Assembly: GCF_900079115.1 (NCBI RefSeq)
Contig: NZ_LT549890.1
Coordinates: 780,001 to 812,000 of the forward strand
DNA length: 32,000 nt
Direction of reading: 5' to 3'
DNA from: Saccharolobus solfataricus
GTDB lineage: Archaea; Thermoproteota; Thermoprotei_A; Sulfolobales; Sulfolobaceae
The notes beneath the pieces are model-generated. The model had not been told where the DNA came from. It saw only the letters and a program-made list of their open reading frames with translations, and ran no database searches. Both the position numbers and the translations under genes were made by a program. Numbering within the stretch: the first letter of the stretch is position 1; each line of letters starts with the position of its first letter. Of this stretch, positions 5,519-32,000 are shown piece after piece.

Positions 5519-6514
5519 ATGAGAATAGCAATTCTGGGAGGGGGAGTCGCAGGTTCTACGTTAGCGTACTTACTCTCAAGGATTAACTATGAAGTCACAA
5601 TCTTTGATATTAATCAACATTACGTTAAACCGTGTGGAGATATAGTCCCAAACATCTATACTCCTCCCTTTAATTGGAAGGAAACTTTTGGTATAAGGAG
5701 ATTCTCCTTTTATATAGATGGCGAAAAAATTTATGACGTTGAATATAGACATACTAAGTGGCTAGTTATTGATAAATGGAAGTGGATAAACGATATGCGA
5801 AAAAGTTCAAAAGTAATAGTAACCCATGATAATAACGCTAAAGAATTTGATTACGTAATAGATAGTAGAGGGCCTTATCCAATGGATAGAGAGGTAGTTT
5901 ATACTACTAGAGCTATAATAGAAACTGAGGAGTTTGACGATGAGGCTATATTGGAATTTAATACCCGTTATACCGGTTTTTATTGGATATTTCCTAGCAA
6001 AGAAAACGAATATAATATCGGAGCTGGTTTTTTGGAATACAAGAATTCGAAAGAATTGCTTAATTATTATTTAAGGAAGAGGTTTAAGAATTTCGAAGTT
6101 AAGGATATCAGAGGAGCCCCTATTAGTATTGGGAGTGTTAAAAATAAGAAGTTAAGGATAGGGGAGGCAAGAGGACTTGTCTTCCCACTGAGCGGTGAGG
6201 GAATAAGGCCATCAGCTATCTCAGCTGAGTATGCCTTTGAGGCTATACATAAAGAAAAAGATCTGGATGGGTTTCTTAACGAGAAGCTCAGTATTATAGA
6301 GAAAAGAATTAAAATTCAAAAAATGCTACTAGATTTATACAGATATTCTAGTTTAAATTTAAGAAAGACTTTTATGAGAATATTCTTTAAGAATGAAGTT
6401 CTCATAGATACATACTTAGAGGATAAGATGGATTTGAATGGAATAATTGAGTCCTTAAAGAGTGTGAGAGCGAATGGAGGTATTATTAGAAAATTCGAAG
6501 AGCAAGAAAGGTAA
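5519..6514 (+). CDS. FAD-dependent oxidoreductase, geranylgeranyl reductase family
   Basis: N-terminal Rossmann dinucleotide motif [19 protein letters not shown]. Mid-protein WIFP...YNIGAG and C-terminal [15 protein letters not shown] are typical of the GGR/FixC-like family. 331 aa, shorter than canonical GGRs. Confidence 0.65.
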
Positions 6515-6863: not shown

Positions 6864-7183
6864 GAAAAATGTTTGAAGTAGGATTTAAGGTTTTAGCTGA
6901 AGATCCTTTTAGAATAAAATACTTGTCACAATCTATTAATGACGTATTTAAGGATTTGTGTGAGCCGGTAAAAATAGGAGCGTCATACATTTGCGCTCCC
7001 AATCAAGATACTCTACTCTTGATCTACTTCAGTTCTCAGCTTTCAAAAGATATGAATGCGTCACTTAAGATAATGTCGAACAATGCAACATATGTTGTTG
7101 AGATTATGAGAGAAGTTAATAGTAGATTAAGGTCACAAGGTTTTTATATAACCATCTCGGAAACCTCTAGTACTTCATTATAA
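6860..7183 (+). CDS. hypothetical protein (107 aa)
   Basis: GTG start overlaps the upstream stop (GTGA), suggesting translational coupling. An alternative ATG lies at 6869. No recognisable motif. Confidence 0.5.
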   Translation: MRKMFEVGFKVLAEDPFRIKYLSQSINDVFKDLCEPVKIGASYICAPNQDTLLLIYFSSQLSKDMNASLKIMSNNATYVVEIMREVNSRLRSQGFYITISETSSTSL

Positions 7184-7458
7184 AGGTTTAGAAGCAAATC
7201 CTCATATATATTCTTAGTAGTAATTTCAACTATCGCATTACAAATATAGGATGAAATTTTAGTGTTACATATTATTAATTTTCTCAATATTCCATTCTTT
7301 ATCTCCTTATTTACATCCATATATATTACTCTTTCTTCATCTTTTGCACGTTTATTTACCTTTATCTCCTTATTTACATCCATATATATAATTACTCTTT
7401 CATTCTCATAAATTACAGAAAAATTTAGACCATTTATGTTGTAATTTGTTACTATCAT
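7144..7458 (-). CDS. hypothetical protein with internal duplicated peptide (E)RVI(I)YMDVNKEIK
   Basis: 104 aa. Start overlaps the stop of the upstream Zn-ribbon gene (ATGA). Its 3' end overlaps the convergent 6860..7183 ORF by 40 nt. Contains an in-frame direct DNA repeat. Confidence 0.5.
   Translation of the reverse strand: MIVTNYNINGLNFSVIYENERVIIYMDVNKEIKVNKRAKDEERVIYMDVNKEIKNGILRKLIICNTKISSYICNAIVEITTKNIYEDLLLNLYNEVLEVSEMVI
7298..7401. repeat. direct repeat of ~38-41 bp (TTTATCTCCTTATTTACATCCATATATAT(AA)TACTCTTTC), copies 63 bp apart
   Basis: Copy 1 is at 7298-7335 and copy 2 at 7361-7401. They are identical apart from a 3-nt insertion in copy 2. The repeat is in frame within ORF 7144..7458. 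Confidence 0.8.
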
Positions 7459-13504: not shown

Positions 13505-14623
13505 CTATAATGCCTTAAATTTCTCTGTCCAAGCCTCATAAGCTTTTATTAATTCTGGATTAACGCTTGGCATTCTTACTTTTAATATATCCTTAAAGTC
13601 TTGGAGCGTAATTGTTCTTGGTTCACCTAAATTATTCTTAAACATTTCTTTAACGACTTTTATATGTGCAGCCTGAACTATATCCCTAATATCACTGGCG
13701 GTATATCCTTCAGTTAATTTAGCCAACTCTTCAAGGCTTACTTCAGTATCTAATTTAATCTTCGAGGTATAATATTTGAATAATGATAGTCTTTGTTCGT
13801 AATCTGGTAATGGTACATATATTCTCTTCTGGAATCTTCTTAAGAAGGCTTCGTCTAACCTCCAAGGCTTATTCGTGGCACCTATAACATATACTTTATA
13901 GTTTTCAGATTTGTCCAAAAGTCCATCCATTTCCTTTAGAAATTGGTTTCTTACTCTTGCTTCTCCTCCTACCTCCGTAGAGTAAACTCCTAGCAATGCG
14001 TCTAACTCATCTATAAATATTATTGCGGGCTTGTTTTGCTTTTTAGATTCTTCCCTAGCCATTTTGAATACGTTTGCTACATTCTTCTCTGCTTCTCCTA
14101 ACCACTTTGACATCACTGAGGCAGCATCTAATTGCATGAAAATTGAGTCTATCTCGTTTGCTACAGCTGCAGCTATCATAGTTTTACCACAACCGGGAGG
14201 ACCATACAATAAGATTCCTCTTGGCCAGCCTAATGGGAATAGGTCTGGTCTCTTAGTTGGATATATTATTGCTTCTCTTAATGCCTCTTTTACATCATCT
14301 AAACCCACTATGTCCTTAAATGAGACCTTTGGCTTCTCTGTAATTACTACTTCCTCTGGCGGACTTGTATTGTCTCCACTACCATCACTAGATGCTGGCA
14401 AGACCTTTTCCAAGTAACTTATTCTTTTCTTATATTCATTAATCATCTGCTCATACGCAGTTCTTGCCACTGATTCTGGATAGAGGACTATGATTTGACT
14501 TAAAACTTCTATAGCCTTCTTATAATACGTTATTGCATCCTCTACCTTACCCTCCTTATCAGCCTTTACTGCAAGAATAGCATATTTTCTAGCCATATCT
14601 TCTAACATTACTTGTGCACTCAT
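13505..14623 (-). CDS. cdvC: Vps4-type AAA+ ATPase of the Cdv cell-division system
   Basis: N-terminal MIT-like helical region. Walker A GPPGCGKT (nt 14180-14203), Walker B IIFIDELD and an SRH ([16 protein letters not shown]). C-terminal Vps4-type helix. Confidence 0.93.
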
Positions 14624-14638
14624 CTATGTACCCTCTTA

Positions 14639-15424
<786 letters not shown>

Positions 15425-15436
15425 TCACTAATTTAG

Positions 15437-16234
<798 letters not shown>

Positions 16235-16330
16235 CTAATAGGAGCTTTTAACCTTCATCATTAGCAGGAAATATTATGTGACCAAGCTTAAAAAGCATAG
16301 TGAACATTAATTAATATTTCGAGTAGAGTT

Positions 16331-24483: not shown

Positions 24484-25485
24484 TTGAGTGAGGAAAAAAT
24501 AGCAAGGGATATAGAGACTAGAAAAGTCCAGAAACTAGGTTCTTCATCATTATTTATCACACTCCCGAAAAAATGGATAAATAAATGGAGCATAAAGCCA
24601 GGCGATAAGGTAATTCTTGAGGCCTTAGATGACGGTAGCTTAAGGTTAATAGCAGAAAAGGCTAAGACTAATGCGGGGAGGAAGACAATATTAGTCGATG
24701 TAGACTCACTAAAACAACCACTAATTAATATAATCCCTTGTCTATATATTTTGGGATTCGATGAAATAGTTTTCGAAACTAAGAAAGATTTCAATAAAAA
24801 AGATTTCGAAGAAGTTCTCTACATCTCTAAACATCTAGTTGGAGCGGAGGTTGTTGAGAGTTCAGAGAAAAAAATCAAATTGGAGTGCTTACTAGATACA
24901 GAGAAAGTCGGAGTTGAATCCTTACTGAGACGTATATTAAATATCATTTCAAAGAGAATTGATGAATTATCTAAGTTTTTAACTAATTCTCATACAATTC
25001 ATCAAAGTGGTATATCTAATAGTGATGATTTAAGGAAAATATATCTGATGTTACTTAGGAGAATAATAGGAAATAAGTATCAGTCCAGTAGTACGGAATA
25101 TTATAGAAATTCGCTTATTTTACTTAATATATCTATTTTGATAAATATAGATTATATAGTATCAAAAATTTATCAGATTAAAGACAACTTTGAGGTTAGT
25201 CCGAGCCAGACGGATATGTTAAAATCGATCTTCACTAGCATAAATGATGTATTGGATGAAATCGTGATGAGCGCTCTATTCCCTAGTGTAAAAAGAATAT
25301 CAAATGGATTCAATCTAATATTGCAAATAAAGCAAAATTTATTGAAAATTAAGGATTCTTTGCCTAACTCATTTAATTTGTATTTAGAAGATTTAGTAAA
25401 TCTATTAGAAAATGCTCTAAATAATTCCATGTGTGGAATTTTCTTAGAGGACTTACCTTGGATAGAAAAAGATTTAACAGCATAA
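24484..25485 (+). CDS. AbrB/SpoVT-domain plus PhoU-like-domain transcriptional regulator
   Basis: N-terminal swapped-hairpin motif VQKLGSSSLFITLPKKWINKWSIKPGDKVILE. The remainder is helical and PhoU-like. TTG start, with TTTTATAAA ~35 nt upstream. Lies immediately upstream of sufC. Confidence 0.7.
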   Translation: MSEEKIARDIETRKVQKLGSSSLFITLPKKWINKWSIKPGDKVILEALDDGSLRLIAEKAKTNAGRKTILVDVDSLKQPLINIIPCLYILGFDEIVFETKKDFNKKDFEEVLYISKHLVGAEVVESSEKKIKLECLLDTEKVGVESLLRRILNIISKRIDELSKFLTNSHTIHQSGISNSDDLRKIYLMLLRRIIGNKYQSSSTEYYRNSLILLNISILINIDYIVSKIYQIKDNFEVSPSQTDMLKSIFTSINDVLDEIVMSALFPSVKRISNGFNLILQIKQNLLKIKDSLPNSFNLYLEDLVNLLENALNNSMCGIFLEDLPWIEKDLTA

Positions 25486-28909: not shown

Positions 28910-29116
28910 TTTCGCTCAACTCCCTCTCTATTTGCTTATAATAGAAATTTTCCTATAATATACTACTTAACCGATTTATAAAAGAGGAAAGTTGGTTAGA
29001 GTAATCACTTTTAAAGCAGAGGAGGAGCTTTTGATAAAACTGGATCTCTTTGCATTAAATAATAGAATGAGCAGAAGTGAAGTAATTAGAATGGCTATAG
29101 AAAAATATTTAGAAGA

Positions 29117-29207
<91 letters not shown>

Positions 29208-29376: not shown

Positions 29377-29449
29377 AGCCGGGTAGTCTAGTGGTCAAGG
29401 ATCCAGGGCTCTGGCCCCTGGGACCAGGGTTCGAATCCCTGCCCGGCTA
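29377..29449 (+). tRNA. tRNA-Gln (anticodon CUG)
   Basis: Hand-folded cloverleaf. Acceptor AGCCGGG/CCCGGCT, anticodon stem CAGGG/CCCTG with loop CTCTGGC. T arm CAGGG-TTCGAAT-CCCTG. 73 nt including the discriminator A. Confidence 0.9.
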
Positions 29450-29562
29450 CCTAGCTAGTAAATATATCGATTGTTGCTCAGAACAACTATAATTCAATTA
29501 TTTTATAGTATCTTTTAGATTTTAATTTCTGAAAGCTAGATATTATCTTTTTGAAACATGAT

Positions 29563-29577
29563 ATGGTAATACTCCTC
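29563..29577. promoter_or_regulatory. candidate operator upstream of nrdJ: ATGGTAATACTCCTC, identical to the cdvA leader 15-mer
   Basis: Exact 15/15 identity with 16152-16166 on the same strand. Contains the GTA-A-TAC odd palindrome. Lies 53-67 nt upstream of the nrdJ ATG. Confidence 0.45.
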
Positions 29578-29629
29578 TCTTTACAACATAAAGTTAAATT
29601 GATACAAGTCATAATAATTCTTGAAGGAA

Positions 29630-32000
29630 ATGGAGCAGCTATTATACTCTACATCTTTAAGAAAGATTAAAGTAATCAAACGAGACGGTAAGGTTGATGA
29701 GTTCAAATTAGAAAAGATACTATCTAAACTTTCTTCCGTCCCAGATGAGGTAACAGATGGCATAGTCAATGATGTACAAGCTAATGTAAAAGATAATGCT
29801 ATAGATACTAGGGTAATTGCGGATATAGTTGAAAGAAACCTCATAGAGAACTCACTAAAGTATCCTTTCTTAATGGAATTAGCAAAACGATATGTCTTAG
29901 CTAGAATTTACAATCATGTTTTCGGTAAAGGGAAATGGAAAGATTTCGATGAGAAGGATTTGCTTCTCTCTTACAACGCATTAAAAGTATTGGAAGCTAG
30001 ATACTTATTGAAAGATCCTAATACTTTGCGTTATATTGAGACACCACAGATGTTATTCAGAAGAGTAGCTAGATTTCTCGCATCAGTTGAGAGAAAATAT
30101 GGTAAATCTGAGGCTGAAGTTAAACAGCTAGAAGATAAGTTTTACGAAATGATAAGTGACTTGAAGTTTGTACCCAATTCGCCAACACTGATGAATAGTG
30201 AAACTAGACTAGGCATCTTATCAGCATGTTTTGTAATTCCAGTTAAAGACGCTATGACTACGCCAGAGGGAGATGGAATATATGACGCGTTAAGAGCTAC
30301 TGCCCTTGTTCACCAACAAGGTGGAGGGACTGGTTTCGATTTCTCAGAATTAAGACCTAAGGGAGACGTAGTAGCTTCAACTGCGGGTGTGGCGTCTGGT
30401 CCGGTTTCATTTATGAAAGTATTTGATGCCTCTACTGATGTTATAAAGCAAGGTGGAAAGAGAAGAGGAGCTAACATGGGAGTGATGCACGCATGGCACG
30501 CTGATATTGAAGATTTCATTCGTGCTAAGACTGGTCAGCTAAAAGATGTTCAGTTACAGAATTTCAATATTTCTGTAGGTGCTTATGACTACTTTATGGA
30601 TGCTGTTGTGAAAGGCGAGAGTGTACCTTTAATTAACCCTAGAAAGACCAAGATAGCAGGGAGAGATCATGAATATTATATTACAAAGGCTAGGGGTTAT
30701 ATGAGTGAGGAGTGGATTCAAGAGGTCATACTATCAGAGTTAGAGGAAAAAGGTGGAGTAGTTTCTCTAGATGAGAGTAAGATTATTACGGTTGACGAAG
30801 CACTAGTAATAGCCTCAAAGGAGGGGGCTGTTGTCAAGTATGTTAATGCAAAATCATTATTCGATGAAATAGTGAAGGGGGCATGGGATAGTGGTGACCC
30901 TGGCCTTCTCTTTATCGATACTATTAATAGGAGACATCCTGTTTGGTATTTAGGTAAGATTAATGCTACAAATCCATGTGGTGAAGAGCCACTATTACCT
31001 TGGGAGAGTTGTAATTTAGGCTCTATAAATCTAGAGAAATTTGTTATAGAAAGAGATGGCAAAGCGGCGATAGATTGGGATGGATTAGCCGAAATTATTA
31101 GGTACGGGGTAAGGTTTCTGGATAACGTGATTGATGCTAATCGTTATCCGTTAAAGCAAATTGAAGATGCAACCAAGAGAACTAGGAAAGTAGGTTTAGG
31201 TGTTATGGGACTAGCTAGAATGTTTATTAAATTAGGTATTGCTTATGATAGTGTAGACGCAATATACTTGTCATACCAATTAGCCAAGTTCATATTTTAC
31301 CATGCGTATAAGGCATCTATTGAGATAGCTAAGGAGAAGGGTACATTTCCTACATATGATGCGAGGCTGTATAGGGATATTTGGGAGAGTGCATTGGACT
31401 TCGATTCATTGCTACAAACTGCTGAAATTAGTGATAAACCCTCAGATTACGTTAAAAAGTTAACTAGTGTGGTGGATAAGTTAGATTTTGATTTGCTAAA
31501 AGGTGAGAGATTAAAATATGGTTTAAGGAATTCCACTGTAGTTTCTATAGCCCCAACGGGTACTATCTCAATAATAGCTGGGACATCATCTTCAATAGAA
31601 CCACTATTTGCATTAGCGTTTGTTAGAAATGTCGCAGTTGGGAAGTTCATCGAAATTGATCCGCTTTTCCTAGAATATCTAAGAAAATATGAGTTAGATG
31701 ACCCAGAGGTTATTCAGAAAATAGCTGAAAGCGGGATAATTGGGGATAACGTATTTATGCCAAGATCATTAAGGAAATTGTTTAGAACTGCTCATGAGGT
31801 TCCACCAATTTATCACGTCATGCATCAAGCAGCTTGGCAACAGTGGAATGATTCCGGGACTTCCAAGACTATTAACTTAAGATCAGAGGAGCCACCGGAG
31901 ACTGTAGAGAAGGTCTATTTATTAGCGTGGAAACTTGGAATAAAAGGTATAACTGTCTATAGGGATAAGAGTAAGCAACAGCAAGTGATCTATTTCGGCG
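29630..32000 (+). CDS. nrdJ: ribonucleoside-diphosphate/triphosphate reductase, class II (adenosylcobalamin-dependent), N-terminal ~790 codons (3' end outside window)
   Basis: I translated the frame by hand from ATG 29630 to the window end with no stop. Motifs: N-terminal ATP-cone ([13 protein letters not shown]), [63 protein letters not shown] and TVYRDKSK. It is absent from the ORF track because it runs off the window. Confidence 0.9.

Follow-up and report, generated by a model that had tools for sequence, protein, structure and literature searches.

Genes and promoter elements at the two loci

The window (the whole 32,000-nt stretch of Saccharolobus solfataricus DNA analysed here) carries the cell-division operon cdvA-cdvB-cdvC and, at its far end, the beginning of the gene for a class II ribonucleotide reductase (RNR). 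The features of the cdvA locus are as follows.

13505–14623: cdvC (vps4), with Pfam AAA, MIT and Vps4_C domains
14639–15418: cdvB, with a Pfam Snf7 domain
15437–16153, minus strand: cdvA, with a Pfam CdvA domain, heading the cdvA-cdvB-cdvC (vps4) operon
16154–16162, no strand assigned: cdvA box 1, AGTATTACC on the sense strand, in the 5′UTR directly before the ATG
16186–16194, no strand assigned: cdvA box 2, AGTATTACT on the sense strand, abutting the TATA box on its downstream side
16194–16200, minus strand: predicted cdvA TATA box, TTTATAA on the sense strand, position inferred from the sequence

On its sense strand the cdvA upstream region reads TTTATAAGTATTACTT...GAGGAGTATTACCATG. [quoted passage not shown]

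The RNR locus contains the following features.

28992–29165, plus strand: aCcr2, a 57-aa ribbon-helix-helix (RHH) regulator (Pfam RHH_1, 27.8 bits, above the cut-off), paralogue of aCcr1, recognizing a similar box
29377–29451, plus strand: tRNA-Gln (CUG), found by ARAGORN and Rfam, the upstream neighbour of the RNR promoter
29539–29547, no strand assigned: possible weaker second box, GATATTATC, a perfect palindrome with a 7/9 match
29563–29577, plus strand: the 15-mer reported by the earlier note, made up of the box and the non-conserved flank bases AT (5′) and CCTC (3′)
29565–29573, no strand assigned: aCcr-box upstream of RNR, GGTAATACT, with an 8/9 match to GGTAWTACC
29588–29603, plus strand: predicted RNR BRE/TATA, ATAAAGTTAAATTGAT, with the TATA core TTAAAT at 29594–29599
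29611–29618, plus strand: AT-rich proximal promoter element, ATAATAAT, kept in the window and in S. islandicus
29630–32000, plus strand: class II adenosylcobalamin-dependent RNR (nrdJ, called nrdA in the literature), extending past the window end

The RNR open reading frame matches the Pfam domains ATP-cone, Ribonuc_red_lgN and Ribonuc_red_lgC. Its homologues are annotated as adenosylcobalamin-dependent, and it shares 97% identity with the proteins of S. islandicus L.S.2.15, Y.G.57.14 and L.D.8.5. Together with the gene order from cdvA to RNR, this identity places the window in a Saccharolobus near S. islandicus. The RNR promoters of S. islandicus carry an identical box at the equivalent place. 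The predicted BRE/TATA ATAAAGTTAAATTGAT is likewise identical in the window and in S. islandicus, while AGTTAAAT is found at the equivalent place in Metallosphaera.

Across 14 lineages, the A+T fraction upstream of the RNR start codon peaks at −35 (0.94) and at −15 (0.89). We infer from the sequences that these peaks correspond to the BRE/TATA and the proximal element, which would place the transcription start site (TSS) a few bases before the ATG; in the window, the TSS was predicted at about 29622–29625 from the usual 26-nt spacing between TATA and TSS. The RNR box lies in a 178-nt intergenic region and within about 150 bp of the start codon. It starts 65 nt before the ATG, and its centre is located at −61 from the ATG and at about −55 from the predicted TSS. 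Since the A+T peaks fall at −35 and −15 in all lineages, the spacing between box and TATA is fixed, and in every lineage the box precedes the predicted TATA centre by 26–30 bp. No box was found between the TATA and the RNR ATG in the lineages compared. Thus the arrangement differs between the two promoters: both cdvA boxes lie downstream of the TATA box, whereas the RNR box lies upstream of its predicted TATA.

The palindrome GATATTATC is situated 26 bp upstream of the main RNR box, within the block AGATATTATCTTTTTGAAA that is kept in the window and in S. islandicus. Across lineages, secondary 7/9 sites are more frequent than expected in the 60 nt that precede the main box (8 observed, 2.0 expected; P = 0.001). 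Judged by its sequence, GATATTATC is a possible second, weaker box at RNR.

Several S. islandicus strains and metagenome contigs carry fragments of an SSV-type integrase (PF16795) directly before the tRNA-Gln/RNR promoter (L011:983-1714, L015:99-827, L018:1-706, L020:1-721 and L021:1-706). The tRNA-Gln gene is an integration hotspot, yet the downstream box and promoter are intact.

The 15-nt repeat and its chance background

Exactly two copies of ATGGTAATACTCCTC are present in the 32-kb window, at 16152–16166 and 29563–29577, both on the plus strand, as the earlier note had reported. Allowing up to two mismatches gave zero additional copies in the window. The sequence on either side of the two copies shows no relatedness, which agrees with the note's description of a discrete element rather than a duplicated segment. 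The gap between the second copy and the RNR start (29630) is 53 nt. At cdvA, part of the 15-mer had been described as doubling as Shine-Dalgarno sequence and start codon. We found the Shine-Dalgarno-like GAGGAG there, but the overlap with the cdvA ATG (16153..16151, minus strand) is limited to 'AT'. The further argument that the opposite orientation at nrdJ speaks for protein binding carries no weight, given the palindromic core.

The significance of the repeat depends on how it is counted. The chance expectation of about 1e-4 given by the earlier note is valid for a 15-mer named beforehand, but the occurrence of any repeated 15-mer is to be expected: in 100 dinucleotide shuffles, exact 15-mer repeats arose with a mean of 3.8 events per window, and at least one was found in 98% of the shuffles. 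In a targeted test, any 15-mer of the cdvA upstream region (16140–16240) recurred elsewhere in only 2 of 300 shuffles. The total number of GTAWTAC sites in the 32-kb window is unremarkable (4 observed versus 4.4 expected). Three of these four sites fall in the cdvA and RNR promoter regions, and the fourth is inside an aminotransferase gene; in the non-genic 4.1% of the window, 3 sites were observed versus 0.31 expected (Poisson P = 0.004). These results show that the length of the 15-mer per se is not significant, while the core is. The other RRTAWTAYY matches in the window are all within coding sequences, except one at 6479 that overlaps the start of an open reading frame, and no further promoter boxes were found in the window.

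Other isolated exact 15-mer pairs exist at 24756–24770/30859–30873 (direct) and 2556–2570/4949–4963 (inverted), all in coding sequence, and exemplify the chance 15-mer background of the window. A longer exact direct repeat of 30 nt, CTTTATCTCCTTATTTACATCCATATATAT, occurs at 7297–7326 and 7360–7389, 63 nt apart, within the open reading frame 7144–7458 (minus strand), for which neither a Pfam match nor a TRF array was found. A third copy of the 11-mer GGTAATACTCC is located at 2143–2153 within the class I/II aminotransferase coding sequence, where it encodes D-E-V-I-L-P. This copy is an intragenic box-like site, and many intragenic aCcr sites have been seen in published ChIP-seq.

Conservation of the box upstream of RNR

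RNR upstream regions were gathered from species genomes, metagenomes and assemblies. In an alignment of five Saccharolobus-like lineages, GGTAATAC is the sole invariant run in the intergenic region of about 180 nt, and the conserved core in relatives is GGTAATAC(T/C). The earlier note had suggested looking for the element upstream of nrdJ orthologues, and there the core is indeed kept: a match of at least 8/9 to GGTAWTACC, starting at −60 to −69 from the RNR ATG, was identified in 14 of 17 distinct Sulfolobaceae lineages, with flanks that cannot be aligned. Boxes occur at a background rate of 0.26 per kb, which makes the chance probability 0.0026 for a single lineage and gives a binomial P of about 5e-34 for 14 lineages. 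The box-positive lineages include Saccharolobus, Sulfurisphaera javensis, Stygiolobus, Metallosphaera sedula, M. javensis, Sulfuracidifex tepidarius, several metagenome lineages and S. acidocaldarius, the last with the variant GGTGTTACC. Three Sulfolobaceae-like metagenome lineages among the 17 (L033, L038 and L045) are without a good box at −65; 7/9 sites are present farther upstream in L033 and L038, and nothing of at least 7/9 is present in L045.

The bases that extend the box to 15 nt behave differently. The S. islandicus RNR upstream region reads cgaGGTAATACTCTTC, in which the 5′ AT and 3′ CCTC of the 15-mer are not kept, and these flank bases differ at S. islandicus and at every other locus compared. 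Similarly, the 11-mer GGTAATACTCC is absent from all other RNR loci compared. At cdvA, the extra matching bases make up the Shine-Dalgarno-like GAGGAG and a portion of the ATG. The functional part of the 15-mer is only 9–10 of its 15 bases, and the repeat reaches 15 nt by coincidence, through four to six further matching bases.

Outside the Sulfolobaceae, three Desulfurococcales/Thermodiscus MAGs (L004:853, L006:2762 and L007:4651) have a perfect 9/9 GGTAWTACC about 147–150 nt before RNR. These palindromes lie far upstream of a TATA-like element at −35 and are the sole match at the locus in two of the three. Ignisphaera (L051) and another Desulfurococcaceae genome (L052) carry only 7/9 variants, and the box was not found upstream of the distant bacterial and other archaeal RNR loci. 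Taken at the level of sequence, this distribution suggests that the link between RNR and the box may predate the Sulfolobaceae.

The shared element is the aCcr-box

The sequence shared by the two promoters is the aCcr-box (also termed aCcr1-box or ccr-2 box), the 9-bp palindrome GGTAWTACC. Within the 15-mer, TAATACT corresponds to AGTATTA on the opposite strand, and the sequence, with its GTA-W-TAC core, also agrees with A(T/G)G(A)TA(G)A(T/G)TACN, both consensus forms being those of PMC9976878 and PMC9976892. The AGTATTA site has been equated with the ccr-2 box (TGTATTAT) of Lundgren and Bernander (PMC9976892). The box is recognized by aCcr1 (SiRe_0197/SiL_0190/Saci_0942), which has the paralogues aCcr2 and aCcr3 as well as viral homologues such as SIRV2 gp21, and which is reported to be ubiquitous in Sulfolobales (PMC9976892); its own gene lies outside the window.

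Binding and expression data are available for the orthologous promoters of S. islandicus. In competition EMSA, aCcr1 (SiL_0190) and SIRV2 gp21 specifically shifted the promoters of sil_1169 (cdvA) and sil_1153 (nrdA), and nrdA (sil_1153, RNR) is listed among the box-positive genes (PMC9976892). Overexpression of aCcr1 in S. islandicus changed nrdA by +3.8 log2 and cdvA by −2.5 log2 (PMC9976892). The S. acidocaldarius nrdA orthologue, Saci_1353, is cyclic at G1/S (PMC9976892); in this species RNR also went up on aCcr1 overexpression, RNR mRNA has its maximum at D/G1, and 5 of the 29 genes that went up show aCcr1 occupancy (bioRxiv 10.64898/2026.09.06.749720). The earlier note had postulated a protein-binding element, and the EMSA results on the S. 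islandicus promoters support it (PMC9976892). Its hypothesis that cdvA and RNR share one cell-cycle regulator also holds, with both promoters bound and both genes changed in expression in S. islandicus (PMC9976892). Because TAATACT in the 15-mer is the reverse complement of AGTATTA, the hypothesis is correct but already published, having been shown in this sister species. The sequence-only reading thus recovered a published cdvA-RNR link and is mainly a confirmation.

When compared with the published aCcr1-box regulon, the window element has the same motif (AGTATTA, the GTAWTAC palindrome) in the same Sulfolobales clade, and the same targets, namely cdvA with two boxes between TATA and ATG and RNR with a box no more than 150 bp from its start; nothing essential is different. 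The RNR box in the window is probably a binding site for aCcr-family proteins of the window's own species. A box alone does not prove regulation, because the 7-mer motif is common, with 240 S. islandicus genes having it upstream, and expression did not change for most of the genes bound in ChIP (PMC9976892, PMC9976878). Altogether, we consider it highly probable that the element belongs to an aCcr-box system in which RHH regulators shut off cdvA and their binding at the upstream box accompanies RNR induction.

Box position and the opposite responses of cdvA and RNR

In the mechanism favoured here, GGTAWTACC is bound by dimers of the RHH regulators aCcr1, aCcr2 and aCcr3, or of viral mimics such as SIRV2 gp21. 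Binding to the cdvA boxes blocks the pre-initiation complex or RNA polymerase, so that cdvA is turned off late in division; published EMSA, box-mutation and expression data show this repression of cdvA via boxes downstream of the TATA. At RNR, a regulator bound about 26–30 bp upstream of the TATA and at about −55 from the TSS would not occlude TBP/TFB, and its occupancy at the transition from division to G1 may accompany RNR induction, coupling the end of cytokinesis to the dNTP supply for S phase. The best-supported reading is therefore one of a single RHH family and a single motif in two architectures, in which downstream boxes repress cdvA and an upstream box accompanies RNR induction. Placement downstream of the TATA is a trait of the repressed subset and not of the motif family.

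Activation of RNR through the aCcr-box may be direct and dependent on position; the RNR rise could also be indirect, resulting from the cell-cycle arrest that overexpression causes. We tentatively propose, while judging it somewhat less than an even chance, that the RNR box is an upstream activating site located about 2.5–3 helical turns before the TATA, where the bound RHH protein, otherwise known as a repressor, would directly recruit or stabilize TBP/TFB, and that RNR is among the oldest members of the regulon. If so, a single pulse of aCcr1 would turn cdvA off and RNR on by box position alone. This would also explain the activation by aCcr1 at a few S-phase genes, which 'remains to be elucidated' according to a recent study (bioRxiv 10.64898/2026.09.06.749720), and the Desulfurococcales/Thermodiscus palindromes would make the link between RNR and the regulon older than the Sulfolobaceae.

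The main rival explanation is that the RNR box is a repression operator. Here, constitutive aCcr2/aCcr3, possibly together with the site at 29539–29547, would keep RNR low in G2, and release at D/G1 would follow from phosphorylation of aCcr2 by aCcrK; in that case the RNR rise seen with overexpressed aCcr1 would come indirectly from an S-phase-like arrest or reflect displacement of a stronger repressor. A 2026 NAR study, in which RNR is not mentioned, describes aCcr1, aCcr2 and aCcr3 all as repressors with similar motifs, and control as repression and de-repression. The enriched secondary sites upstream of the main box could support cooperative binding, and the aCcr2 gene adjoins RNR in the window genome. 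However, that adjacency is not kept outside Saccharolobus, and in every lineage the box occupies the place some 26–30 bp upstream of the TATA, with none between TATA and ATG. A site upstream of the TATA is an unusual place for archaeal repressors to occlude TBP, TFB or RNAP. Moreover, overexpression of aCcr1 or gp21 raised RNR, in two species. Both the location of the box upstream of the TATA and the rise in expression speak against the repression operator, which we regard as unlikely.

A chance repeat that is functionless at RNR would be consistent with the shuffles, with the two other isolated 15-mer pairs, with the ordinary GTAWTAC total and with the GGTAATACTCC copy in the aminotransferase gene. 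On the other hand, the core stands at an equal distance from the RNR ATG in 14 lineages with diverged flanks (P ~5e-34), it is the sole invariant intergenic block as GGTAATAC, and the orthologous S. islandicus promoter was bound in EMSA. For the core, chance is refuted by the conservation data and holds for the extra flanking bases of the 15-mer only, so that a functionless repeat is very improbable.

Least probable of all, and hardly credible, is an element of another nature: the ATG at 29563 does open a 35-codon reading frame ending at 29670, but this ATG is missing in S. islandicus (GAGGTAATAC) and other lineages; an RNA leader was rejected by an Rfam search at E ≤ 1, which gave two tRNAs only plus noise far below the gathering scores; a remnant of an element integrated at tRNA-Gln, to which the SSV-type integrase fragments beside this gene in several S. 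islandicus strains and metagenome contigs might point, does not fit the retention of the box where the RNR neighbour is ArgRS or PGK and neither tRNA nor integrase is present; and the predicted TSS is downstream of the box. An upstream promoter with the box at its TSS was rejected as well, as the AT-rich stretches upstream of the box show no conserved spacing across lineages.

Relation to other regulatory systems

Returning to the two-architecture reading, a similar dependence on position is known from Thermococcales, in which TrmBL1/Tgr and SurR use one motif to repress downstream of the TATA and to activate upstream of it. By analogy, the same effect is proposed for cdvA versus RNR. These regulators differ from aCcr1 in having TrmB or winged-helix folds rather than RHH and in responding to metabolic or redox signals, and direct activation by aCcr1 is so far only proposed.

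CdrS of Halobacteria is likewise a small RHH protein that acts on cell-division genes through a palindromic site similar to the aCcr1-box (PMC9976878). It differs in belonging to an FtsZ-based division system, in its few targets and in its low sequence similarity to aCcr1. To our knowledge, CdrS has no link to RNR.

Bacterial NrdR-boxes and eukaryotic MBF/E2F also use a dedicated operator to match RNR transcription to the demand for DNA synthesis, and the MBF/E2F factors that act on RNR at G1/S control other cell-cycle genes too. NrdR, in contrast, is an ATP-cone/zinc-ribbon repressor with 16-bp boxes overlapping the promoter, and MBF/E2F are unrelated proteins, so that homology is not implied.

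The coupling of completed division to dNTP supply by one small regulator is central to the archaeal cell-cycle circuit, and viruses exploit it, with SIRV2 gp21 switching RNR on. RNR is a very well conserved aCcr target. The present analysis adds the position of the RNR box relative to the BRE/TATA, its fixed place at −65 across genera and its occurrence in Desulfurococcales MAGs, all of which are absent from the aCcr papers. The upstream-of-TATA position of the RNR box, as opposed to the cdvA arrangement, offers a testable reason for the opposite effects of one factor.

The aCcr2 gene beside RNR

The window itself encodes an aCcr-family RHH regulator. Its open reading frame at 28992–29165 is aCcr2 (SiRe_1157/SiL_RS14755) by sequence, with clear orthology. 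The order and number of genes counted from cdvA are consistent with SiRe_1173 to 1157 and with sil_1169 to 1153, and 81 records of Sulfolobales viruses contain homologues of aCcr2. The five residues Arg3, Thr6, Lys8, Ser24 and Thr49 described for aCcr2/SiRe_1157 are all found in the S. islandicus orthologue (L010:1375-1548). In the window protein Arg3, Thr6, Lys8 and Thr49 are present, and Asn24 replaces Ser24. Ser24 is the site phosphorylated by aCcrK, and a phosphomimetic substitution there abolishes DNA binding (PMC13199686). With Asn24 in place of Ser24, the phospho-switch may differ in the window species.

The aCcr2 gene is located 400 nt upstream of the RNR region, before the tRNAs. Its adjacency to RNR is limited to Saccharolobus, the RNR neighbours elsewhere being ArgRS or PGK, and is probably incidental. 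An intron-containing tRNA gene, detected by Rfam (62.7 bits) and missed by ARAGORN, occupies 29117–29206 on the minus strand, and the last ~16 codons of aCcr2, including the reported Thr49 phosphosite, are antisense to it.
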